Positions 3,983 to 46,581 of a DNA stretch of 46,581 nucleotides are shown here, piece after piece. Origin of the DNA: Pseudomonadota bacterium (lineage in GTDB: Bacteria > Pseudomonadota > Alphaproteobacteria > MED-G09); assembly GCA_036230365.1 (NCBI GenBank), contig JAZAJI010000038.1, positions 1 through 46,581 of the forward strand, given 5' to 3'. Within the stretch, counting starts at the first letter, position 1, and the number at the start of each line of letters is the position of its first letter. The notes under the pieces were generated by a model that saw only the letters and a program-made list of their open reading frames with translations, made no database searches and was not told the origin of the DNA. A program made the translations under genes and the position numbers.

Positions 3983-5053
3983 TTAATCTAAAAAATTCTC
4001 AATAATTTTATTTATATTAACTAATTTGAAATTCTGATTTACTTTCTTAGCTTGTAAGGAAACTCCATCTAATTCAAACTCATCCATATTCATGTCATCT
4101 TGAGCAATGAAAATTCCTTCACTAAAGTTTTCGTTTATTTTTCCATAAAATATTTCAATACCATCTGTTCGTGATACCCCATCAATTCTTTTACTTTTAT
4201 TAATGGAAAAGCTTCCTATAAATTCCTTATTCTGACTTACATTATAAACAGTAAAGTTACTGGAGCCTTGAGAAGAGGCAATAAGTAATTTTCCTTTAGG
4301 GTGATTTAATAAAGCAAGCCCTTCAGTGTCTCCATTAATATTACCATTGTATTTTCTAGTTCTATCCAATGTCTCTACTTTATTATCATTAGGTTCTGCA
4401 TCTATAAAATAGACACCAGAATCTTTATCTTCTTGAGCAAAATATAATATTCCAGATTCATCATCTGCAACACAACCTTCTGAAGTTGTTGAAGTCTTAA
4501 TTTGTCTAACCATTTGAGTCTTAAGAGGAAAAAAATTAAGAACCCTATATTGATAAATTGATAAAGTTTCAATATCGCTTACAAAAATATAAGTTGATTT
4601 GGATTTGAGGCTTTTATACATACAAAGTCCATATACACTTTCAAGTCCAGTTATGATTTCATTATTATTTAAATTATCTATAAAACCTTCTTCATTTATT
4701 AAGTATATGATTATTGAGTTATTGCTGCCATTTGAACCGGCTAAAATAGAAAACTTTTTCGCCCCAAAACTATAGCCGCTCCTACTATCAATATTATTTA
4801 CTCTTCCTGATGGAATAAATTGTAACCTTTTACCGTCCAATGAAAAAGAGTGAACTCCTGCCTTTTTATCAGTTCCAAAAATTACGCTTTTATTTGGATT
4901 ATTTGGGTTATACCAAAAAGCGGGGTCATCAGCGGCATCGCCGCTTGTAAAAACTGGCTCTGTTTCAACTTTTGGAGATATATCAATAATTAAAGCATAA
5001 ACATTACAGCAAAAGAGTAATGATATTGTAATTGTAAACAGCTTAATCATCAT
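3983..5053 (-). CDS. Secreted beta-propeller phytase (3-phytase)
   Basis: Signal peptide MMIKLFTITISLLFCCNVYA. GDAADDPAFWYNP matches the DAADDPA(I/L)W signature of Bacillus-type beta-propeller phytases. Repeated beta-strand/Asp-rich blades follow. Confidence 0.8.
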   Translation of the reverse strand: MMIKLFTITISLLFCCNVYALIIDISPKVETEPVFTSGDAADDPAFWYNPNNPNKSVIFGTDKKAGVHSFSLDGKRLQFIPSGRVNNIDSRSGYSFGAKKFSILAGSNGSNNSIIIYLINEEGFIDNLNNNEIITGLESVYGLCMYKSLKSKSTYIFVSDIETLSIYQYRVLNFFPLKTQMVRQIKTSTTSEGCVADDESGILYFAQEDKDSGVYFIDAEPNDNKVETLDRTRKYNGNINGDTEGLALLNHPKGKLLIASSQGSSNFTVYNVSQNKEFIGSFSINKSKRIDGVSRTDGIEIFYGKINENFSEGIFIAQDDMNMDEFELDGVSLQAKKVNQNFKLVNINKIIENFLD

Positions 5054-8208: not shown

Positions 8209-9528
8209 ATGAAAAAAGACCCTAAAAAAGAAAGAGCAAACAATGTAAGCGGATCAGCTAATGCATTTTATGATGAGGAAGTAAAAATTACTGGAGATCG
8301 CTACACCTCAAAAGACTTTATGGAGAAAGAGTTAAAAAAATTATGGCCTAAAGTCTGGAATATTGGTGGATGGAGCAAAGAATTACAAAAAGAAGGTGAT
8401 TTTATTACGCATAATATTGGAAGAGAATCAATCCTGATGGTAAGGGAAAAAAATAACAAAATAAAAGCCTTCCATAATGTTTGTCCACATAGAGGTAATA
8501 GACTCATTCATGTTGATTCAGGATTTGTTAAGGATTTTACCTGCACTTATCATGGTTGGAAATTTAACTACTCAGGGGATTTAATATATGCTCAAGATGA
8601 AGATGACTTTCCGCAGGGAAATCCATGCGGAAAAGTAAAATTATCAGAAATACCATGTGAAGAGTATGGCGGTTTCATATGGTATAATATGGATAAAAAA
8701 TGCTTTCCTTTAAAAGGTTTTCTTGGAGAAGTAACTAATTATATAGATAAATATGACAACGAAGGATTAAAGAGAGTTTATTATAAAGTTTGCGAAGTAC
8801 CTTTTAATTGGAAAGCTTTGAGAGATAATTTCTGTGAATCATATCATTTACCTTCAACTCATCCTCAAATTGGTGATTATTATGATGATGATTATAAAAA
8901 TACTGATTTTGAACTTTATGAAACAGGTCATAATCTAATGAAAATGAAAGGCTCTTTACCATCTTTAAGAAACCCAAAAACATTTAAAATGAATGATAAG
9001 TTGGAAGCGGATCTAGTTTATTGGGATTTAAATCCAAAAGATTTCGATGGAAAAGCTCACTTAGTCAGACAAAGTTTACAAACTCAAAAAAGAAAGCTTG
9101 GAGAAAGCAAAGGGTTTAAACATTTTGAAGATTTGCCAGATTCATGGTTAACAGATGCTTTCCATTTTAATATTTTTCCAGGAACATCAATAACTTATAC
9201 TTCTGCTGCTGTATCTTTACAAAGAACAGAGCCTCATCCTACTGACCCAAACAAAGCTATATATGATCACTGGGGATTTGCTTTGAAGCCCAATGATTTG
9301 GATTTAGTTCCTTCTCCAGAAGATATGGTCCCATGGGAAGAGGTCGAAAAAAAAGTAGTTATTTTTGGTGAAGAAACTTTAAGTGATGTGGCCGACCAAG
9401 ACCTTGTTAGAGCAAGCGCTCAACAATTAGGTTTTCATTCAAGTGGTTTTGAAGGGGCTTACTTATCTGGACAAGAAAATCGTGTCCAACAATTTCATAA
9501 TTTTATTGATAGATACATTAATAATTGA
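8209..9528 (+). CDS. Rieske non-heme iron oxygenase, alpha subunit
   Basis: Rieske motif CPHRGNRL-x15-CTYHGW (C92, H94, C112, H115; nt about 8482-8553). Mononuclear iron motif DNFCESYHLPSTH. Confidence 0.85.
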   Translation: MKKDPKKERANNVSGSANAFYDEEVKITGDRYTSKDFMEKELKKLWPKVWNIGGWSKELQKEGDFITHNIGRESILMVREKNNKIKAFHNVCPHRGNRLIHVDSGFVKDFTCTYHGWKFNYSGDLIYAQDEDDFPQGNPCGKVKLSEIPCEEYGGFIWYNMDKKCFPLKGFLGEVTNYIDKYDNEGLKRVYYKVCEVPFNWKALRDNFCESYHLPSTHPQIGDYYDDDYKNTDFELYETGHNLMKMKGSLPSLRNPKTFKMNDKLEADLVYWDLNPKDFDGKAHLVRQSLQTQKRKLGESKGFKHFEDLPDSWLTDAFHFNIFPGTSITYTSAAVSLQRTEPHPTDPNKAIYDHWGFALKPNDLDLVPSPEDMVPWEEVEKKVVIFGEETLSDVADQDLVRASAQQLGFHSSGFEGAYLSGQENRVQQFHNFIDRYINN

Positions 9529-9617: not shown

Positions 9618-11054
9618 ATGGACAAAATTTTTAGGCATCCATCAGTAATTGATGGTAAAGACCCCAATAATTTGAGAGGAGATCCAATAACTAATGATCG
9701 CTATTTCTCAAAAGACTTTATGCAAAAAGAATGGAAGAGTATGTGGACAAAAGTCTGGCTTATTGCGGGCAGGGAAGTCCAAATAAAAGAACCAGGAGAT
9801 TATATTGTCCATGATCTTGCTACAGAATCAGTCATCATCGTTAGACAAAAAGACGGTTCTTTAAGGGGTTTTTATAATAGTTGTGCACATAGGGGGCAAA
9901 GAATTGTTGAGTGCGATAGCTCGCAAGATTCGTTTCGATGCCCTTATCATGATTGGCAATTTGGATTAGATGGCGAAGTAATAGGTTGTCCAGATGAAGA
10001 TGATTATCCTCAAGGGAGTCCTATTGGTAAAAGAAGATTAGTTGAGGTTAGGGTTGATACTTGGGATGGATTTATTTTCTACACCATGAATGATGAGGCT
10101 CCTGATCTTTTAGATTATTTAGACCCTCTTCCAGAAATTTATAAAAATCATAATTTCAAAGACCAGATTAGGGCTCAATGGGTAAGAGTTGAACTTGATG
10201 TAAATTGGAAATTCTTTTGCGATAATTTTAATGAATCTTACCACACTCGTTTTGTACATCCACAAGTGCCTTCGGTTATTGATCAAGATCATTTTACTTC
10301 AAGATATGAAATGTTTCCAAAAGGTCATGCAAGAATAATTCAGATGGGCAGACCTTCCTTAAGGGATAGAATTAAAGAAGGAGAAGATCACCCTTTCGAA
10401 ATGATTCTTGAAGATTGGGGGATTGATACCAGTAAATACCCTGATTATGAATCTTTATCTGAGAAAGGCTGGTTAGATTTAAAAGAGGCAAAAAAGAAGC
10501 TTTGGAAAGAAAAAGGATATCACCACTATGAAAATTTATCGGATGAGGAATTAACAGAAAGTCCTTTTCAATTTATTTTTCCAAATATTGCAATGGGAGT
10601 ACAAGCAGATGGTTGCATCCTCTTAAATTGGTTCCCTCATCCTACAGATCCTGAAAAGTGCTTTTTCGATCTTTGGGATATGGGATATCCAATTGGTGGA
10701 TCTGCAAAAGGTATAGGTAAAACAGGTAGAGATACCGATAAAGGATTCACCTCAACCTCAGCAGGCATAGGCAAACAAGATTTAGCTAATAATCAAGAAT
10801 TTCTTAGTCGCACTAAAGTAAATCCAGTTAAACTTCAGGAAGTTGAATTAGATTTTCGAGATTATGATGGAGGAAAAGGCGTTGAAGATCTTTGGGATCA
10901 TGTTGTTTATCAAGACTGGCAACTCACTGATGGATTACGACGTGGTGTAAGATCTAAAGGGTATCAAGAGCCTTATTTGTCAGGGCAAGAATCCCGAGTT
11001 AGATACTTTCATGAAACTTTACATGATTACCTGAACGGGAAACCGCCAAAATAA
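9618..11054 (+). CDS. Rieske non-heme iron oxygenase, alpha subunit (paralogue)
   Basis: CAHRGQRI..CPYHDWQF and DNFNESYHTRFVH. The N-terminal block YFSKDFMQKEWKSMWTKVW is almost identical to 16402-17766. Confidence 0.85.
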   Translation: MDKIFRHPSVIDGKDPNNLRGDPITNDRYFSKDFMQKEWKSMWTKVWLIAGREVQIKEPGDYIVHDLATESVIIVRQKDGSLRGFYNSCAHRGQRIVECDSSQDSFRCPYHDWQFGLDGEVIGCPDEDDYPQGSPIGKRRLVEVRVDTWDGFIFYTMNDEAPDLLDYLDPLPEIYKNHNFKDQIRAQWVRVELDVNWKFFCDNFNESYHTRFVHPQVPSVIDQDHFTSRYEMFPKGHARIIQMGRPSLRDRIKEGEDHPFEMILEDWGIDTSKYPDYESLSEKGWLDLKEAKKKLWKEKGYHHYENLSDEELTESPFQFIFPNIAMGVQADGCILLNWFPHPTDPEKCFFDLWDMGYPIGGSAKGIGKTGRDTDKGFTSTSAGIGKQDLANNQEFLSRTKVNPVKLQEVELDFRDYDGGKGVEDLWDHVVYQDWQLTDGLRRGVRSKGYQEPYLSGQESRVRYFHETLHDYLNGKPPK

Positions 11055-12285: not shown

Positions 12286-12648
12286 TTAAGTATTATTAAT
12301 ATTTGATTCATGCTCCTCAACAATATATGAACGCATCATAGATAAATCGAATATTTTCTCTTCATCCTCATTAATTTCTCTTTTTATTTCAGGTTCTTGA
12401 AGATTTTTTCCACAAGCCTCAAAAGTTTCCATATCCGGGTACCAAATCTCCATAAGCACATCAAACTCTGGATCAGTTATATTTCCTGATCTATCAGGAA
12501 GAGGTTCAGTAAATCTTCTTATGTATTTAATTGCATAGCCAGAAAGATATTTCTCTCCAATAACTCTATGTTTTGTTTCGTAATAGTCTCTAAATTCACT
12601 AATAGACATACCAGGTCTTCTCTTCATAGGCATAATAACTTTTATCAT
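12286..12648 (-). CDS. EthD-family protein (dimeric alpha/beta barrel)
   Basis: 120 aa. MIKVIMPMKRRPGMSISEFRDYYETKH is the typical EthD N-terminus. Confidence 0.65.
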   Translation of the reverse strand: MIKVIMPMKRRPGMSISEFRDYYETKHRVIGEKYLSGYAIKYIRRFTEPLPDRSGNITDPEFDVLMEIWYPDMETFEACGKNLQEPEIKREINEDEEKIFDLSMMRSYIVEEHESNINNT

Positions 12649-16401: not shown

Positions 16402-17766
16402 CTATCTCCTTCCTTCAATATAATCATTTAAAACTTCGTGGTAACGCCTTACTCTTCTTTCTTGGTTAGTCAGTATTGCATCCTCAAAACCTTTTGATTT
16501 AACACCTTTTTGCTGGCCAATGGCCATACTTATATCTTGATCAGTAACATAACCCATAGAACCTTCAGGATATATAACCCATTCATGCTCAGCAGGCTTT
16601 AAAGGTCTTGGCCCAAGCGGTGTTTCTGTCATTTTTTCACCAGCAGTTGTTTCTGTAGTATCAGAACCCATAAATGTTGCTGAAGCTGACAAACTTTCCA
16701 TATCAGGTACAAGCCACCAATGTTCAAAAAGGCATTTCTCAGGATCAGTTGGATGTGGTTGTGGTCTTTGAAACTGTATTCCATCAGGTGTCATTGTTAT
16801 ATCATAATTAGGAAAGCAATTATAAAAATAATAATCAGTCAATTGTTCATTAGTTAAAAATTCATAATGCCAAAACCCTCTTTCTTTAGCTAATTTTCTT
16901 TTCTGCTCTTGTATAGCTAATCTTGTTTCTTGAGCCTTTCCTTGAAAATCTTTTGGGTTTAAATCCCATGCCTCTAAAGCCGCGTCTAGAGGAAAATTAA
17001 CATCATTAGGAGACTCATCCCCTAAAGCAGGCTTATGGCCGGGCATCAACATTCTATTGTGTCCATTGTCATACATATCAAATTGAGAAAACTTATAATT
17101 GTTCTCAATATGAACCGAAAGCTCCGGATGTAAAGTTGGTAAATGATAAGATTCATTAAAATTATCATGTATAATCTTCCAATTACAATCTACTTCACAA
17201 GTTAAATTTAAAACCCTTATGTATCTTTCAGGTTGATAAGGTTTCATATGGTCTATAAGAGGATTTAAAGCCTCTTCGAATTTCTGAGGTTTTTCTGATA
17301 AGTTAACCCAAACAAATCCTAAAGAAACTTCGCAGTGCACTTCTTTTAATTTAATTTTTCCACAAGGATTTCCACCATCAAAATCTTCAGCATCTTGCAA
17401 GTGAGTCAAAACACCTTCAGTATTATATTCCCAACCATGGTAGGTACATTTGAAAGTATCTAAACAACCATTATCAACATGAACAAGAATATTGCCTCTG
17501 TGAGGACAAACATTATAAAATGCTTTAATAGATTTATCTTTTTGCCTTACAACTAATATTTCTTCTAATCCAATCCTATAAACAAAAAAATCATCTGGCT
17601 CAGGAATTTCTGACGCTATTCCAGCTATTTGCCATACTTTAGTCCACATATGATCCCATTCTTTTTGCATAAAATCCTTAGAATAGTATCTTGCACCAGA
17701 AATTTTATCCCCTCTCAATTTAGGATCAGGATGCTTTTCTCTTGGAGTAGGAATCATCTTGTTCAT
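16402..17766 (-). CDS. Rieske non-heme iron oxygenase, alpha subunit (paralogue)
   Basis: CPHRGNIL..CTYHGWEY and DNFNESYHLPTLH. The ATG lies 2 nt after the stop of the SnoaL_4 gene. Confidence 0.85.
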   Translation of the reverse strand: MNKMIPTPREKHPDPKLRGDKISGARYYSKDFMQKEWDHMWTKVWQIAGIASEIPEPDDFFVYRIGLEEILVVRQKDKSIKAFYNVCPHRGNILVHVDNGCLDTFKCTYHGWEYNTEGVLTHLQDAEDFDGGNPCGKIKLKEVHCEVSLGFVWVNLSEKPQKFEEALNPLIDHMKPYQPERYIRVLNLTCEVDCNWKIIHDNFNESYHLPTLHPELSVHIENNYKFSQFDMYDNGHNRMLMPGHKPALGDESPNDVNFPLDAALEAWDLNPKDFQGKAQETRLAIQEQKRKLAKERGFWHYEFLTNEQLTDYYFYNCFPNYDITMTPDGIQFQRPQPHPTDPEKCLFEHWWLVPDMESLSASATFMGSDTTETTAGEKMTETPLGPRPLKPAEHEWVIYPEGSMGYVTDQDISMAIGQQKGVKSKGFEDAILTNQERRVRRYHEVLNDYIEGRR

Positions 17767-18301: not shown

Positions 18302-19708
18302 ATGAGCGAAGTTATTAAAGATAAAAACATCAAAATTGATAAGCAAAGAACTCCGGATACGAGTTATACCGAATATTTGAGTGAAGATGCTAAAAAAGTT
18401 CCTGATTTCATGGTTGAAGAAAGTTTTGTAGATCTAGGATCGGACGATATTGATATAGAAAGATATACATCTAAAGAATTCTTTAAAAAAGAAGCAGACT
18501 GCATGTGGACAAGAGTTTGGCAATTTGCATGTAGAGTAGAGGATATTCCAGAGGTTGGAGATAGTCTTGTTTATGATATTCTTGATTGGTCTTTTATTAT
18601 AGTTAGATCTGAAGAAGATAAGATTAAAGGTTTTTATAATAGCTGTCTTCACAGAGGAAGAAGAATTAAGACAGATAGGTCTTTCAGTAAAGACTTGGAG
18701 TGCCCTTTTCACGGTTTTTGCTGGAATCTTGATGGATCACTTAAACGCACACCGGCTCCTTGGGATTTTCAACACATAAAAGATAGAGAGTTTAATTTAC
18801 CGGAAGTACGACTAGAAATCTGGCAAGGTTTTGTTTTTATTAATATGGATGATAATGCAGTATCACTAGAAGAATATTTAGCTCCATTACCAGAACATCA
18901 TGAAAGATGGGATTTAGGAAATTGTAAAAAAGTAATACATGTATCTAAAGTTGTTCCTGGAAATTGGAAAACTGTTCAAGAAGCTTTTATGGAATCATTT
19001 CATGCAACAAAAATTCATCCGGAAATTATGCCTTTCCAAGCAGATGAAAATGCACGGTATGACATATATGGTGATCATATGAATAGAAATATTGCCCTTA
19101 CAGGAAAACCAAGCCCCAATTGCCCTGAAGTTGATGAACAAGAAATATTAGATACTATTTTTTATGGCTCAGGAAGAGTTGAAGCTGAAGATAAAATTAT
19201 TGTACCTGAGGGTGCAGAAGCAAGAAAAGTTGCGGCACAAGCAATGAGAGATGCCTTTAGTGAGGCAGATGGTCATGATTATTCTGATAAATCTGACGCA
19301 GAAATGCTTGATGCTATTGTTTACAATGTCTTTCCGAATTTCTCTCCATGGGGAGGTTTTCCAAGAAATCTTATTTATAGATTTAGACCTAATGGAACTC
19401 GAGAAGATTCAGCTATAATGGAAGCAATATTTTTACAAAGAAATCATAAAGATCCAGAAAAACAAGAAAAATACGAACCAATACCGATTCATTATTTGAG
19501 TGAGGATGAAAATTGGGATGATGCTGAAGAGTTAACAGGGATTGGTTTTATTTTTGATCAGGATATGTCTAATATTCCTGAAGTTGAAAGAGGTATAAGA
19601 ACTAAAAAAGGCGGAAAAATTGTTTATGCTAATTACCAAGAAAGCAGACTTCGTCATTATCATAACACTATTGATAAATATATCGCTAAAGGCCCTTTTA
19701 AACCTTAA
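18302..19708 (+). CDS. Rieske non-heme iron oxygenase, alpha subunit (divergent paralogue)
   Basis: CLHRGRRI..CPFHGFCW and EAFMESFHATKIH. Confidence 0.8.
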   Translation: MSEVIKDKNIKIDKQRTPDTSYTEYLSEDAKKVPDFMVEESFVDLGSDDIDIERYTSKEFFKKEADCMWTRVWQFACRVEDIPEVGDSLVYDILDWSFIIVRSEEDKIKGFYNSCLHRGRRIKTDRSFSKDLECPFHGFCWNLDGSLKRTPAPWDFQHIKDREFNLPEVRLEIWQGFVFINMDDNAVSLEEYLAPLPEHHERWDLGNCKKVIHVSKVVPGNWKTVQEAFMESFHATKIHPEIMPFQADENARYDIYGDHMNRNIALTGKPSPNCPEVDEQEILDTIFYGSGRVEAEDKIIVPEGAEARKVAAQAMRDAFSEADGHDYSDKSDAEMLDAIVYNVFPNFSPWGGFPRNLIYRFRPNGTREDSAIMEAIFLQRNHKDPEKQEKYEPIPIHYLSEDENWDDAEELTGIGFIFDQDMSNIPEVERGIRTKKGGKIVYANYQESRLRHYHNTIDKYIAKGPFKP

Positions 19709-34318: not shown

Positions 34319-34738
34319 TTAAAAAAAAGGGTCATATGCCCACTGAAGAAGAGCTTGTCTTTGTCTTGCTCTACACCATATATCACCCTCCTCGCAATTT
34401 TTTTTAATCCCTCCAATATGTCTCGGGCCAAATGCTTTCCATCTTTTTATTTGAAAGTTATCTACTTTATCAATTCTTCGTCCCATAAAGTATCTACAAT
34501 ACCACTGGAACCATCCCAAAGGATCTTCAGGTGTTATCCATCCCTTATTTTGCCAAACTTGTAATGATTGGCCAGATTCAATTTTAAAATAATTTAAATC
34601 CACTTTAAATCCATCAAAGCTAATTTTAGCATTGTCGAACCAGGCCTTCGGAAATTCAGAAGTATCTTGAAAATAGAAGCCTCCAAATACACCTAATTCT
34701 AACATTTCCTGTGGAGTTAATTGAGGAGAAAAACCCAT
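34319..34738 (-). CDS. Trp/Arg-rich cytoplasmic protein, unknown function
   Basis: 139 aa with GWFQWYCRYFMGRR and IKRWKAFGPRH. Starts 3 nt after the upstream stop. Confidence 0.45.
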   Translation of the reverse strand: MGFSPQLTPQEMLELGVFGGFYFQDTSEFPKAWFDNAKISFDGFKVDLNYFKIESGQSLQVWQNKGWITPEDPLGWFQWYCRYFMGRRIDKVDNFQIKRWKAFGPRHIGGIKKNCEEGDIWCRARQRQALLQWAYDPFF

Positions 34739-41063: not shown

Positions 41064-43208
<2,145 letters not shown>

Positions 43209-43257
43209 CTAAATTCATTTATTAGACCTAAATTGCGAAAATTATATAAAAAAATTA

Positions 43258-43291
43258 AATAATATTGTAGATTCGGGCATGTAATATTATT
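43258..43291. promoter_or_regulatory. Inverted repeat AATAATATT-N16-AATATTATT in the katG / dehydrogenase divergent region
   Basis: Read directly. The 16-nt spacer contains the only GC-rich patch of the region (attcgggcatg). Confidence 0.3.
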
Positions 43292-43300
43292 AACTTTTTT

Positions 43301-43324
43301 CTAGTGTATTTCAATACAAACTAG
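43301..43324. promoter_or_regulatory. Near-palindrome CTAG-TGTATT-tc-AATACA-aa-CTAG
   Basis: Read directly. It lies 38-61 nt upstream of the ATG at 43362. Confidence 0.3.
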
Positions 43325-43361
43325 AAATTTTATCTTTAAAAAACTTAGGAGATAATTCTTT

Positions 43362-44945
43362 ATGAGTAATGTAAAAGTAATTCTCGTATGCTTATCACTG
43401 CTGTTCGTTAGTTGCGCTATAGAAGAAAGCAATAATACAAAAAAAGATTCTTTTGACCAAAAATTTTGGGTTGAAGATTATGTCAAAAATCTTAGTTTCC
43501 CATGGGCAATTGCTTGGCTACCGAACGGGGATTTACTTCTTACCGAGCGATTAGGAAATATTAAATTAATTCGTAATGGAAAAGTTATCACTGAACTAGA
43601 AGGTGTTCCAGATGTAATGTCTGCAAGCCCTTTTGATGGATTATTAGATATAAAGATTGATCCAGATTTTAATACAAAGCCCTATATTTACCTTACTTAT
43701 ACAAAGGGTTCAGCAACTTCTAGAGTGGGTGTAATTTATAAAGCAAAAATTGAAGGTAATCGATTAATAGAAGGTAAAGAAATTTACAATACATATCCTG
43801 CTGCACCTACCGGGGGGCCAAATATAACTCGCATTCAATTTCTTAAGGATAAGTCATTAGTTGCGGCAGTAGGATCTAGTGGTCAACATGCTTACGGAAT
43901 GGTTCAAAGACTTGACGGGGATATAGGAAAAATAATTCGAATCTATAGTGATGGATCGATTCCAAATGATAATGCTTTAGCTATTACAAATAAAGGTGCA
44001 AAACCAGAATTATGGGCTACCGGTCTAAGATCTGTAGGCGGATTAACATTAGATGAAGAGTATCGTTTGTGGGGTGTAGAGATGGGACCTCAAGGAGGTG
44101 ATGAATTAAATCTAATACAACCTGGAGGAAATTACGGTTTTCCATTAATTAGCTGGGGTTTTGACTATTCTGGAAGAGCTTTATCTGAGAGACAAAGTGC
44201 AGCTGGTTTTGTTGATCCAATAGTAACATGGAGTCCATCAATTTCGCCTTATGGCATTACCTATTATCAAGAAGAAGCCTTCCCCAACTGGAAAGGTGAT
44301 TTATTTATGGGTGTATTAGGTGATCAGACAATTCTTAGAATGAGAATCCGTAATAATAAACTTATAGAACAACAAGATTTATTACCTGACCTTAATGAAA
44401 GAATTCGTTCGGTAGAAACTGGTCCTGATGGATTTATATACGGAGTTACAGATTCATCAAAAGGTAAGATTATACGAATAAGACCCGGAAAACCATCCGA
44501 GAAAGATCTAGAAAATGTTTCTAAACCATTCCCAATGCCCACAAATAGTGACATTGGTGAAAGATTAAAACAACATGGTGTAATGCAAAATGAAAAAACT
44601 ATGCTAGCTCTTCAAGCTGCTTATGATCCAGAAAGAGCTGAATTTATATACAATCAAAATTGTGTAAGTTGCCATAGCCTGAAAGCTAGCGCAGAAAGCA
44701 ATATCGGTCCCCATCTTGAGGCCATTGCAGGTCGAAGATCTGGCACTTTACCTGATTACAATTATTCTGCAGCTATGAAGGTAAATAACCGGACAAGCGT
44801 AATTTGGGATTCACGTACAATTGCTGCTTTTATAACTAATCCTCAAGCTATATTTCCTGGCACTAAAATGATATCAAGACCTCTTAATTTTGAAGATGCA
44901 GTACAAGTTAGTAGTTATTTAACTAGGTTAAAAAATGAAGAATAA
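43362..44945 (+). CDS. Lipoprotein PQQ-dependent (sGDH/YliI-type) beta-propeller dehydrogenase fused to a C-terminal class I cytochrome c
   Basis: Lipobox LLFVSC. FPWAIAWLPNGDLLLTERLGNIKLI is typical of glucose/sorbosone dehydrogenases. The C-terminus has CVSCH and IFPGTKM, resembling mitochondrial-type cytochrome c. Confidence 0.75.
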   Translation: MSNVKVILVCLSLLFVSCAIEESNNTKKDSFDQKFWVEDYVKNLSFPWAIAWLPNGDLLLTERLGNIKLIRNGKVITELEGVPDVMSASPFDGLLDIKIDPDFNTKPYIYLTYTKGSATSRVGVIYKAKIEGNRLIEGKEIYNTYPAAPTGGPNITRIQFLKDKSLVAAVGSSGQHAYGMVQRLDGDIGKIIRIYSDGSIPNDNALAITNKGAKPELWATGLRSVGGLTLDEEYRLWGVEMGPQGGDELNLIQPGGNYGFPLISWGFDYSGRALSERQSAAGFVDPIVTWSPSISPYGITYYQEEAFPNWKGDLFMGVLGDQTILRMRIRNNKLIEQQDLLPDLNERIRSVETGPDGFIYGVTDSSKGKIIRIRPGKPSEKDLENVSKPFPMPTNSDIGERLKQHGVMQNEKTMLALQAAYDPERAEFIYNQNCVSCHSLKASAESNIGPHLEAIAGRRSGTLPDYNYSAAMKVNNRTSVIWDSRTIAAFITNPQAIFPGTKMISRPLNFEDAVQVSSYLTRLKNEE

Positions 44946-46086
44946 GAAGTCTTTTTCTAGAAGGACATTTTTAACCGGTACATTAACTACTGGTGCACTA
45001 GCTATTACTCCTAAGTCACTAAGAAGTAATGAAAATATTTTTTCATATATAACAAGACACGGCCCTTCATCAGGAATTGCCAAACTTAATGGTAACGAAA
45101 ATCCTTATGGGCCAAGTCAAAAGGCTTTAAGAGCTATTAATGAAGCATCTAAAAAATCTGGTTACTATGTTCATACATCAGGTGAAACATTACGATCAAT
45201 GATTGCAGAAAAGAATGGATTAACTAATGATTATATCATCTTAAGTTCCGGGTCTACAGCAGCTCTAACGAACATTGCACTGGCATCAATTAAAAAAGGT
45301 CATATTCTAGCTCCAGATCTTTTTTGGGATAGCACAGCAAATTTAGCTGCAGGAACTAGTCAAAATAAATTGAAAAGATTACCAAGCAATACAAAACACC
45401 AAATAGATCTAGGAATTATGAAGAATTCAATTTCTAAGGATATATCTCTAGTTCATATAACAAATCCGAATAATCCAACAGGATCAGTATTAAATAATTC
45501 TGAGTTAAAAGAATTTTGTAGAGAAGTTTCAAAGACTTGCACTATATTAATTGATGAAGCATATAATGATCTAACTGATAATCCTAAATCTTCAACAATG
45601 ATACCCCTTATTAAAGAAGGTAGAAATATTATTGTAACACGTACATTTTCAAAGATTCACGGCTTAGCTGGTTTACGGATAGGTTATATGATTGCTAAGC
45701 CTAAGTTAATAAAAGAAATCATGAAATTTGGAATAATCGGTAACTGGACAACCAATCATGCGGGTATAGCAGCAGCTATAGCTAGTTATAATGATAAAAA
45801 TTTCTTATCACATTCAAAAGCAATGATAAATGAAGGAAAAGAAATGGTCATGGAAGCCGTTAAAAAAAATGGACTTTCCGCCTTACCCTCAAAAGCTAAT
45901 TTCATCTTTGTTAATTTAGGATCTTTAAATGCCGATAAATTCAAAGCAAGCATGGCTAAAAGAAATATAATAATATCTGGAATTTACCGAAATCATAAAA
46001 ACTGGTCACGTGTAAGTATGGGAAAAATTAGTGACATACAAAGATATGTAAATACTATGCCAGAAGCTTTGGAAGAGATTAGCTAG
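44935..46086 (+). CDS. HisC-like class II PLP aminotransferase with a twin-arginine (Tat) signal peptide
   Basis: FSRRTFLTGTLTTGALAI matches S-R-R-x-F-L. NENPYGPS, NPNNPTG and TFSKIHGLAGLRIGY (PLP lysine) are present. The start overlaps the upstream gene by 11 nt. Confidence 0.7.
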   Translation: MKNKKSFSRRTFLTGTLTTGALAITPKSLRSNENIFSYITRHGPSSGIAKLNGNENPYGPSQKALRAINEASKKSGYYVHTSGETLRSMIAEKNGLTNDYIILSSGSTAALTNIALASIKKGHILAPDLFWDSTANLAAGTSQNKLKRLPSNTKHQIDLGIMKNSISKDISLVHITNPNNPTGSVLNNSELKEFCREVSKTCTILIDEAYNDLTDNPKSSTMIPLIKEGRNIIVTRTFSKIHGLAGLRIGYMIAKPKLIKEIMKFGIIGNWTTNHAGIAAAIASYNDKNFLSHSKAMINEGKEMVMEAVKKNGLSALPSKANFIFVNLGSLNADKFKASMAKRNIIISGIYRNHKNWSRVSMGKISDIQRYVNTMPEALEEIS

Positions 46087-46581
46087 ATTTATTGATAAAT
46101 TGACTCACATCCTTATAAATTAAACAAGCCATAAGTATTAGTCCAATATAACCTATTGAAGGATATATTAAATTAATAAGCTGGCCAAAAGGTAGTAAGT
46201 TTCCTCCAAACCAACAAATTAATGTAAGGATTACTGCTAAAAGTCTGAAACGCAAGCTATGCTCTACAGCAAAGCGACGGCAAATTGTCCACATTAAAGG
46301 TGTGACAGTGGTGTAAATACCAAGAAAAATAACAACAGCAAAGATTGAACCATAAACCGGGAAAACTTTTGTTGCTAATACAAGTATTGGAACTTCAGCA
46401 TTATATACCGATTGAATATTGCCTAAAAGCGCAAGAAATACGATGGTCATTGCCCCAATAAAGAGTAATGGCCCAAAAAGTGATACCCCTTTTACTTCAA
46501 AATTACTTCTAATAGTTGTTCCTACAAGAGGTAAAAAACCATATAAACCTGGGAGGGAAAAAACTGCGTACAAAATAGCAG
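46079..46581 (-). CDS. Polytopic membrane protein, C-terminal part (possibly YkvI/transporter-like); the N-terminus lies beyond the right window edge
   Basis: The frame stays open upstream of the TTG at 46573 to the window end. About 5 hydrophobic segments. The stop overlaps the aminotransferase gene by 8 nt. Confidence 0.45.
   Translation of the reverse strand, partial: AILYAVFSLPGLYGFLPLVGTTIRSNFEVKGVSLFGPLLFIGAMTIVFLALLGNIQSVYNAEVPILVLATKVFPVYGSIFAVVIFLGIYTTVTPLMWTICRRFAVEHSLRFRLLAVILTLICWFGGNLLPFGQLINLIYPSIGYIGLILMACLIYKDVSQFINKSS

Follow-up and report, generated by a model that had tools for sequence, protein, structure and literature searches.

Two overlapping genes near the end of a marine bacterial contig raise the question of whether a haem-carrying oxidoreductase and a transaminase, both predicted to be exported, act together in one periplasmic pathway. 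The window analyzed here is the complete 46,581-bp contig JAZAJI010000038.1 of a marine "Pseudomonadota bacterium" metagenome-assembled genome (G+C content ~33%). The upstream gene of the pair (gene 1) encodes a lipoprotein in which a six-bladed beta-propeller is fused to a c-type cytochrome, and the downstream gene (gene 2) encodes a HisC-like transaminase that depends on pyridoxal phosphate (PLP) and carries a twin-arginine translocation (Tat) leader. An original prediction, made from the DNA letters, had described both as a translationally coupled periplasmic pair consisting of a pyrroloquinoline quinone (PQQ) dehydrogenase and an aminotransferase. Based on the distribution of both genes in related metagenomes and genomes, gene 2 is accessory, and gene 1 is independent of its presence. 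The reading favoured here, by a modest degree of confidence, is that both genes are co-transcribed and linked at most facultatively, with the transaminase providing an optional amine/carbonyl branch and not the second step of an obligate pathway.

Conservation and Loss of the Gene Pair

A metagenome scan with gene 1 yielded 49 loci. The pair with identical overlap geometry was found from the gene 1 side at L009, L010, L012, L013, L014, L015 and L034 and from the transaminase side at L006 and L007, i.e., on at least nine related metagenomic contigs, which together with the sequence itself confirm the 11-nt overlap noted in the original prediction. Across these loci, gene 1 is 78-99% and gene 2 74-99% identical to the window. 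Gene 2 is absent from L011, L016, L019, L021, L022 and L041, where the next gene after gene 1 is that of the convergent membrane protein, which lies behind gene 2 in the window. Identities of gene 1 amount to 87% in L011 (97.5% for the membrane gene), 78% in L016 and ~66% in L019, L021, L022 and L041. Comparison of L011:1954-2090 with window positions 44880-46120 revealed that the first 14 nt (ATGAAGAATAGGAA) and the last ~25 nt of the transaminase gene remain; this remnant is a clean internal deletion scar. Gene 1 homologues of at most 68% identity were never accompanied by a transaminase, and those at 57-62% as well as the distant ones from genomes lack both the transaminase and the membrane gene as neighbours.

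Conversely, no soluble glucose dehydrogenase (sGDH) gene and no related cytochrome gene was present within 6 kb at any of 80 transaminase loci from species-representative genomes. Conservation of the pair across genomes is ruled out by these 80 loci and by the lack of transaminases beside distant fused propellers. Co-occurrence outside the immediate relatives was thus not found, and the pair is confined to a single narrow marine lineage. The term periplasmic pair stands insofar as both products are predicted to be periplasmic; as a conserved partnership it does not, with the relatives L011 and L016 lacking gene 2.

Purifying selection acts on both genes in the loci that carry them, with omega values of 0.11-0.15 for gene 1 and 0.10-0.14 for gene 2. 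Their synonymous divergence (dS) is discordant, amounting to 0.55 (gene 1) versus 1.18 (gene 2) in L010 and to 0.66 versus 0.37 in L012. Along window positions 41064-46581, L010 shares 99% identity in KatG and 97-99% in the adjoining intergenic region, compared with 88% in gene 1, 74% in gene 2 and 81% in the membrane gene, which indicates probable recombination boundaries around the block of these last three genes. In a distance tree of the transaminases (calculated without bootstraps), the clade of the window together with L001 is sister to a gammaproteobacterial clade whose members are linked to genes of the TauE/TSUP membrane-protein family. The transaminase may therefore have left a TauE-linked context and settled between gene 1 and the convergent membrane gene in one marine lineage, where it would represent an accessory gene that is kept by selection where present and was deleted from, or never reached, sister lineages retaining gene 1. 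The accessory status of gene 2 and the independence of gene 1 follow from the presence/absence pattern, the deletion scar and the tree position.

No conserved operon partner and no single functional theme were recognized among the neighbours of gene 1 across lineages. They vary from KatG and a short-chain dehydrogenase/reductase (SDR) to two GPH-type transporters of the major facilitator superfamily (MFS), a glutathione S-transferase (GST) with E1 alpha/beta subunits, a blue-copper protein and an eight-bladed PQQ dehydrogenase. In the ~78% group (L013-L018), the propeller-cytochrome gene is preceded on its own strand by one or two genes for GPH-type MFS sugar transporters (PF13347), which hints at a glycoside or sugar as substrate. 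Distant fused propellers (L138:4908-5360, L139:3334-3786, L140:590-6626, L141:8055-11647 and L023-L033) adjoin a blue-copper protein, an eight-bladed PQQ dehydrogenase and, repeatedly, genes for 2-oxoacid dehydrogenase E1 alpha/beta (and lipoyl/E2) components.

The Transaminase and Its Twin-Arginine Leader

The gene 2 product matched the Pfam family Aminotran_1_2 (PF00155, E=8e-42), and its putative PLP-binding lysine K240 as well as the preceding S239 are invariant in a 30-sequence family alignment. The corresponding motif aligns to TFSKIHAMAG of 3LY1, the top match in the PDB (1e-41), followed by solved HisC structures (1e-34 to 1e-24). Among the NCBIfam models, PRK09105 (NF006580) was matched with 1.3e-68 from residue 5 onwards, including the leader (score 231.5, cut-off 444), hisC (TIGR01141) with 8e-63 (212.4, cut-off 276.55) and PtaA (NF051461) with 4.9e-59 over residues 6-373. 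The HisC-like, PtaA-related PLP enzyme of the original prediction was thus recovered. Since the PtaA score of 199.8 bits is far below the cut-off of 500, gene 2 is, as judged from these models, not a PtaA orthologue and represents a related but distinct subfamily with respect to the PtaA and PRK09105 models.

At the N-terminus, the motif SRRTFL is followed by an h-region of moderate hydrophobicity and by ALA as the likely cleavage site. The hisC model begins at residue 42 (model position 16), corresponding to an N-terminal extension of ~26 residues, in agreement with the ~25 extra residues proposed originally. A twin-arginine (RR) motif was found at the same place in 118 of the 120 best protein homologues (47-99% identity) and in 75 of the 80 genome loci (31-54% identity), the latter spanning Gamma- and Alphaproteobacteria, Bacteroidota, Rhodothermales, Acidobacteriota and Marinimicrobia. 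According to these alignments, the leader is genuine and a family trait. Because the motif is conserved across homologues, the start of gene 2 is accepted as called, and no downstream start has to be assumed.

A cytoplasmic histidinol-phosphate aminotransferase with a mis-called start, as implied by the GenBank name of the record MED5436993.1 ('histidinol-phosphate transaminase') and by the match to the hisC model, is extremely improbable. The hisC score is below the family cut-off, in-frame starts downstream of the RR motif and ahead of the domain that would yield a conserved N-terminus are lacking, and family-wide conservation of the RR motif rules this candidate out. A downstream start, named at the outset as an outcome that would speak against export, was accordingly not borne out. 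Furthermore, no his genes were detected among the window's open reading frames (ORFs) scanned, namely 45 of the 47 that comprise at least 120 aa, and no second transaminase was found in the window. The GenBank name is therefore probably a misnomer for gene 2, and many of its relatives are likely misnamed in the same way. Genes for pyoverdine synthesis (pvd or non-ribosomal peptide synthetase genes) were also not found among these 45 annotated ORFs.

By analogy to PtaA, which is exported by the Tat system together with its PLP (PMC6206403), the gene 2 product would bind PLP and fold in the cytoplasm, would then be exported by Tat and cleaved near ALA23, and would interconvert amine and carbonyl groups on a periplasmic compound. 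For Pseudomonas aeruginosa PA2531, which possesses a similar leader, Tat export was validated experimentally (PMC6085387). PtaA is present in many species that do not produce pyoverdine, hence its general name (PMC6206403). The assumption that periplasmic transaminases are rare has to be revised: HisC-like enzymes with Tat leaders are spread over several phyla as predicted periplasmic enzymes, and PtaA homologues beyond pyoverdine producers were noted previously (PMC6206403). A periplasmic HisC-like transaminase is thus not new in itself.

The Propeller-Cytochrome Lipoprotein and Its Altered Active Site

Residues 45-372 of the gene 1 product matched the Pfam family GSDH (PF07995, E=7e-95), and its nearest solved relatives are Escherichia coli YliI (2G8S, 3e-58) and, next, 7CDY. 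The h-region of the signal peptide shows a mean Kyte-Doolittle value of 2.96. The lipobox LFVSC with Cys18 conforms to the PROSITE-type lipoprotein pattern, and a lipobox is present in 54 of 84 full-length fused homologues, the closer marine relatives sampled among them. Pfam recognized the cytochrome c domain weakly (20.6 bits, cut-off 21.3), whereas the matches to NCBIfam CycA (1.5e-16) and to cytochromes c in the PDB (3e-15) are clear. Moreover, CxxCH occurs in all 84 and a distal Met motif in 79 of these 84 homologues. Both the lipobox and the C-terminal haem domain that had been read from the sequence (CVSCH..PGTKM) were therefore corroborated. The protein is predicted to be periplasmic: it would be lipidated at Cys18 and face the periplasm, the propeller would oxidise a periplasmic substrate, and its own haem would relay electrons to soluble respiratory-chain acceptors.

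Residues of the active site were compared in a motif table of 120 gene 1 homologues, applying the numbering of Acinetobacter calcoaceticus sGDH-B, which was transferred by profile alignment of unfused canonical relatives. The clade of gene 1 has retained Arg228, the pair Arg406/408 and the calcium loop with Gly-Pro, and NYG[FW]P is common to gene 1 and YliI/sGDH-B. Six of the nine side-chain positions checked, namely His144, Gln76, Asn229, Gln231, Gln246 and Lys377, are replaced; at the substrate-binding position Gln76, gene 1 encodes Phe. Loss of His144 is common to the cytochrome-fused homologues in which the region is present, down to 36% identity and including Sphingobium, Polymorphobacter and Steroidobacter. 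Unfused relatives of ~380 aa from the same search retain His144 and RN, and nearly all of them retain GQGG and EHGP. The gene 1 clade is distinct and always cytochrome-fused.

His144 acts as the catalytic base, with Arg228/Asn229 flanking the carbonyls of PQQ (PMC6881810, PMC6881789). Given the loss of this histidine and of most side chains that contact PQQ, gene 1 encodes no more than a putative PQQ enzyme. The initial designation as PQQ dehydrogenase consequently holds for the GSDH fold, whereas the PQQ part of the label is doubtful, and the GenBank name of gene 1 (MED5436992.1, 'PQQ-dependent sugar dehydrogenase') and of several fused homologues reflects the fold alone. A 2026 survey of six-bladed propellers applied a nine-residue PQQ signature (bioRxiv 10.64898/2026.07.10.737718), which gene 1, as aligned here, would fail.

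These replacements could nevertheless merely retune the specificity of an ordinary PQQ aldose dehydrogenase that uses scavenged PQQ like E. coli YliI and gained a cytochrome. Homology to YliI at the fold level is strong, the arginines and the calcium loop mentioned above are retained, and PQQ can be taken up via TonB-dependent receptors (bioRxiv 10.1101/2022.06.07.495086), which are also encoded in the window. Moreover, more than 25% of the fungal AA12 PQQ enzymes lack the catalytic His (PMC6881810), and PQQ use by gene 1 is therefore still conceivable. However, the six positions are changed clade-wide and unchanged in unfused relatives, the nine-residue signature would not be matched, and the TIGR03606 score of 102.8 is far from the cut-off of 434.55. 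An ordinary PQQ dehydrogenase is accordingly regarded as possible, though on the unlikely side.

In line with the original prediction, no pqq gene was identified by Pfam and NCBIfam scans or by cluster names in the 45 scanned ORFs of the window; 12286-12648 and 34319-34738 remained unscanned, and the tiny pqqA and pqqD were not searched. Two ORFs of the Lactamase_B_2 family were considered as PqqB candidates and ruled out by NCBIfam.

Genomic Neighbours of the Transaminase Family

In 16 of the 80 genome loci, a gene for a TauE/TSUP-family membrane protein is located directly upstream of the transaminase. These comprise all ten loci of at least 47% identity (Microbulbifer, Alteromonas, Halieaceae and a SAR86 single-cell genome) and six more distant ones; the same arrangement was observed in L002, L003, L005, L144 and L145. 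TauE is the immediate upstream gene in most proteobacterial homologues, and a TonB-dependent receptor is often encoded downstream. In Bacteroidota, an unannotated polytopic membrane protein of ~378 aa (N2), for which neither Pfam nor NCBIfam returned a match, is encoded directly downstream of the transaminase in ten loci, and a GNAT acetyltransferase in four (L118, L121, L130 and L132). SusC/SusD-like genes were found upstream in several Bacteroidota transaminase loci.

No TauE homologue was detected in the window. The convergent membrane protein next to gene 2 was considered as a homologue of TauE or N2, which was ruled out by BLASTP and hhalign. As the three membrane proteins share no homology with each other, they do not represent a single conserved transporter partner in disguise. 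No description of a module composed of TauE and a periplasmic aminotransferase was found in the literature searched. The near-constant neighbourhood of TauE-type or other membrane proteins provides a testable lead on how amino acceptors or donors are supplied to a periplasmic PLP enzyme, since co-substrate supply is an open question in the PtaA literature. A further periplasmic redox context of the transaminase family was observed in L144:1016-8896, where genes for DUF6662, FMN_bind, ApbE, a cytochrome b-like protein, TauE and the Tat-transaminase form a row that is followed by a convergent TonB receptor gene.

Transaminases of this family were also found directly upstream of propellers other than that of gene 1, namely in L001, L087 and L129 (Table 1). 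The propellers of L087 and L129 are full PQQ dehydrogenases accompanied by a cytochrome c, the one in L001 matched the dehydrogenase model only partially and has no cytochrome, and the eight-bladed propellers of all three loci are non-homologous to that of gene 1. Because the dehydrogenases of L087 and L129 are orthologous (45-49% identity) and the transaminases of these loci are only 34% identical, the association between transaminase and propeller arose more than once. The transaminase of L086 is 83% identical to that of L087, yet no dehydrogenase accompanies it. Three propeller matches were counted in 404 kb beside the transaminase compared with one in 498 kb of outer flanks (P ~0.05, post hoc), and assumed genome-wide backgrounds resulted in post hoc P values from 0.001 to 0.08.

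Relationship Between the Two Genes

In the favoured reading, both genes would be transcribed together from the katG-proximal intergenic region, which features a strong AGGAG and two palindromes, and the transaminase would open an optional amine/carbonyl branch for the compound pool handled by gene 1. The following points weigh against this reading. The 11-nt overlap was preserved over a dS of ~1, which would fit selection for coupled expression. The adjacencies in L001, L087 and L129 are suggestive of a biochemical link between the transaminase family and haem-wired periplasmic dehydrogenases. Finally, co-transcription was deduced from gene geometry only.

Two alternatives to a facultative link were considered. 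In an obligate two-step periplasmic pathway, the propeller-cytochrome would oxidise a hydroxy compound or an aldose to a carbonyl, which the transaminase would aminate (or the reverse), and translational coupling would fix the stoichiometry. Retention of the overlap on every contig carrying both genes, the predicted common compartment and the analogous adjacencies, two of which (L087 and L129) include cytochrome c, agree with such a pathway, as does the chemistry of HisC, in which an amino alcohol phosphate and a hydroxy-ketone phosphate are converted into each other. It is nonetheless considered improbable, given that close relatives retain gene 1 without gene 2, one of them with a deletion scar, that gene 1 homologues of at most 68% identity all lack the transaminase, that none of the 80 transaminase loci is near an sGDH or related cytochrome, that the L086 transaminase does without a dehydrogenase and that the propeller enrichment reached only the P values reported above. 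Presence/absence polymorphism and scar would be explained by the absence of any biochemical relation, i.e., by a transaminase that landed in a recombination-prone slot of a streamlined genome, with the overlap as a by-product of compaction. The drop in identity of L010 beyond KatG and the intergenic region, the discordant dS values and the changing neighbours of gene 1 in every lineage point in this direction, and this explanation has to be taken seriously as a minority possibility. It accounts poorly, however, for the maintenance of the overlap over long divergence, for the predicted activity of both enzymes in one compartment and for the recurrent independent adjacency to periplasmic PQQ-repeat propellers, two of which are dehydrogenases with cytochrome c.

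Beyond the window, Tat-exported HisC-like transaminases and haem-wired periplasmic propeller dehydrogenases (six- or eight-bladed) might constitute a recurrent modular pathway in marine bacteria that converts hydroxy, carbonyl and amino groups of extracellular compounds into one another and delivers electrons to the respiratory chain. The window would then represent one version among several that were assembled independently, and the fused clade lacking His144 would apply a cofactor chemistry unlike that of the classical PQQ/Ca sGDH. This wider proposal is speculative and rather doubtful at present. If the enzymes cooperate, abundant marine heterotrophs would process amino/hydroxy compounds outside the cytoplasm while conserving electrons.

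Organization of the Locus and Its Surroundings

Coordinates of the features described are summarized in Table 1. In addition to the overlap with gene 1, a weak AGG is located 9 nt upstream of the gene 2 start. The divergent intergenic region between katG and gene 1 contains an AT-rich palindrome with arms of 18 nt (43249-43266/43283-43300) and a perfect 8-nt palindrome pair, TTTCTAGT/ACTAGAAA (43298-43305/43320-43327). This region is 97-99% identical in L009 and L010; both palindromes are intact in L009, and one substitution occurred in the 18-nt arm of L010. The palindromes may represent an operator common to katG and gene 1. A scan of the sequence for consensus promoters and terminators returned fewer matches than were obtained for shuffled sequence.

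The convergent membrane gene, whose stop overlaps the end of gene 2 by 8 nt, exits the window, and the TTG start listed for it is an artefact of the contig end. The full-length protein, encoded at L009:7718-8794, possesses ~10-11 hydrophobic segments and matched no Pfam or NCBIfam family. Its gene adjoins gene 1 in relatives with or without gene 2 in between.

The contig is dense in oxidative and catabolic functions. Four genes for alpha subunits of Rieske ring-hydroxylating oxygenases (8209-9528, 9618-11054, 16402-17766 and 18302-19708), several SnoaL-like, GST, glyoxalase, epoxide hydrolase, metallo-beta-lactamase-fold and SDR genes and two TonB receptor genes were observed. Furthermore, a beta-propeller phytase is encoded at 3983-5053.

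Table 1. Features of the gene 1/gene 2 locus and of related loci. Residues His144 to Arg408 are numbered according to sGDH-B.
Feature	Position	Strand	Basis
Divergent katG/gene 1 intergenic region with AGGAG Shine-Dalgarno sequence and two palindromes	43197..43361	.	sequence, inverted-repeat search
Gene 1, lipoprotein of 527 aa: GSDH-fold six-bladed beta-propeller fused to class-I c-type cytochrome	43362..44945	+	Pfam
Signal peptide and lipobox LFVSC (Cys18, next residue Ala)	43362..43415	+	sequence
Beta-propeller domain, residues 45-372	43494..44477	+	Pfam, alignment to YliI
GGPNITR, Pro153 replacing His144 (canonical motif HxxGR)	43812-43832	+	alignment
RSVGG, Arg228 kept, Asn229 to Ser, Gln231 to Gly (canonical motif RNPQG)	44028-44042	+	alignment
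EMGPQ, Gln246 to Met (canonical motif E[HQ]GP for Gln246, Gly247, Pro248)	44079-44093	+	alignment
LFMGVLGD, Lys377 to Gly (K in the GALK motif of YliI)	44301-44324	+	alignment
RIRSV, Arg406 and Arg408 kept (canonical motif RxRDV)	44400-44414	+	alignment
Cytochrome c domain, residues 420-522, after a linker of ~47 residues	44619..44927	+	NCBIfam, PDB matches
CVSCH haem motif, residues 434-438	44661-44675	+	sequence
PGTKM distal Met motif, residues 499-503	44856-44870	+	sequence
Gene 1/gene 2 overlap ATGAAGAATAA, gene 1 stop and gene 2 start	44935..44945	+	sequence
Gene 2, HisC-like fold-type I PLP transaminase of 383 aa, PtaA/PRK09105 family, predicted Tat export	44935..46086	+	Pfam, NCBIfam
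Predicted twin-arginine signal peptide, residues 1-23 MKNKKSFSRRTFLTGTLTTGALA, likely cleavage after ALA	44935..45003	+	sequence
SRRTFL, residues 8-13	44956-44973	+	sequence
PLP-lysine motif FSKIHG (K240)	45646..45663	+	alignment
Convergent polytopic membrane-protein gene, 3' part (full-length 358 aa in L009)	46079..46581	-	ORF
Genome loci with TauE upstream of the transaminase	L058-L067, L071-L073, L075, L077, L081		
Bacteroidota loci with polytopic membrane protein N2	L090, L093, L097, L098, L100, L101, L103, L107, L114, L117		
Metagenomic contig, transaminase 60-65% (sister clade); 20 nt on, eight-bladed PQQ-repeat propeller with signal peptide	L001 (110-2894)		
Luminiphilus, transaminase 38%; 42 nt on, cytochrome c::PQQ dehydrogenase fusion (PF01011, 5e-174)	L087 (5773-9341)		
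Marinimicrobia, transaminase 33%; cytochrome c, PQQ dehydrogenase (4e-180) and NHL propeller in turn	L129 (3411-8021)		

Comparison with Known Systems

The closest precedent for gene 2 is provided by PtaA (Pseudomonas fluorescens PtaA, P. aeruginosa PA2531), which shares the HisC-like fold-type I architecture and an SRR-x-F-type twin-arginine leader. PtaA is exported by Tat in a folded state with PLP, and export of the gene 2 product is predicted from its leader (PMC6206403, PMC6085387). Unlike PtaA, gene 2 is located behind a propeller-cytochrome gene in a window in which no pyoverdine genes were found. Bona fide HisC enzymes (TIGR01141; PDB 3GET, 3FFH and others) have the fold and the PLP-lysine motif in common with gene 2, which differs from them by a score below the family cut-off, the Tat leader of ~26 residues, the lack of a his operon context and its predicted periplasmic location. 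Members of the TauE-Tat-transaminase module of marine Proteobacteria (Microbulbifer, Alteromonas, Halieaceae, SAR86 single-cell genome) belong to the same family with 47-58% identity; unlike in this module, gene 2 follows the propeller-cytochrome gene, and the window is devoid of a TauE homologue.

Regarding gene 1, E. coli YliI/Asd (2G8S) and A. calcoaceticus sGDH-B (1C9U) are six-bladed PQQ/Ca aldose dehydrogenases of the same GSDH fold, from which gene 1 is distinguished by its C-terminal cytochrome c, its lipoprotein anchor and six active-site replacements. Fusions of PQQ-type propellers with haem domains are known from Coprinopsis cinerea PDH, which combines an AA12 propeller with an AA8 cytochrome b, and from type II quinohaemoprotein alcohol dehydrogenases, which combine an eight-bladed PQQ propeller with a cytochrome c, and fusions of these kinds perform intramolecular electron transfer (PMC4332668, PMC6881789). 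In contrast to these enzymes, the haem domain of gene 1 is of class-I c-type and C-terminal, the propeller belongs to another clade, and the set of PQQ ligands is not conserved. A comparable pairing of propeller and cytochrome was described for six-bladed PQQ propellers encoded beside periplasmic cytochrome c4/c551 genes (bioRxiv 10.64898/2026.07.10.737718); there, the cytochrome gene is separate and all nine PQQ-binding residues are present, whereas gene 1 combines a fused cytochrome with an incomplete signature.

Neither the arrangement of gene 1 and gene 2, nor the accessory status of the transaminase, nor the His-less fused clade was found described in the literature searched. The locus is thus a new arrangement of known parts, in which a PtaA-type transaminase has been placed behind a GSDH-fold propeller wired to a cytochrome.

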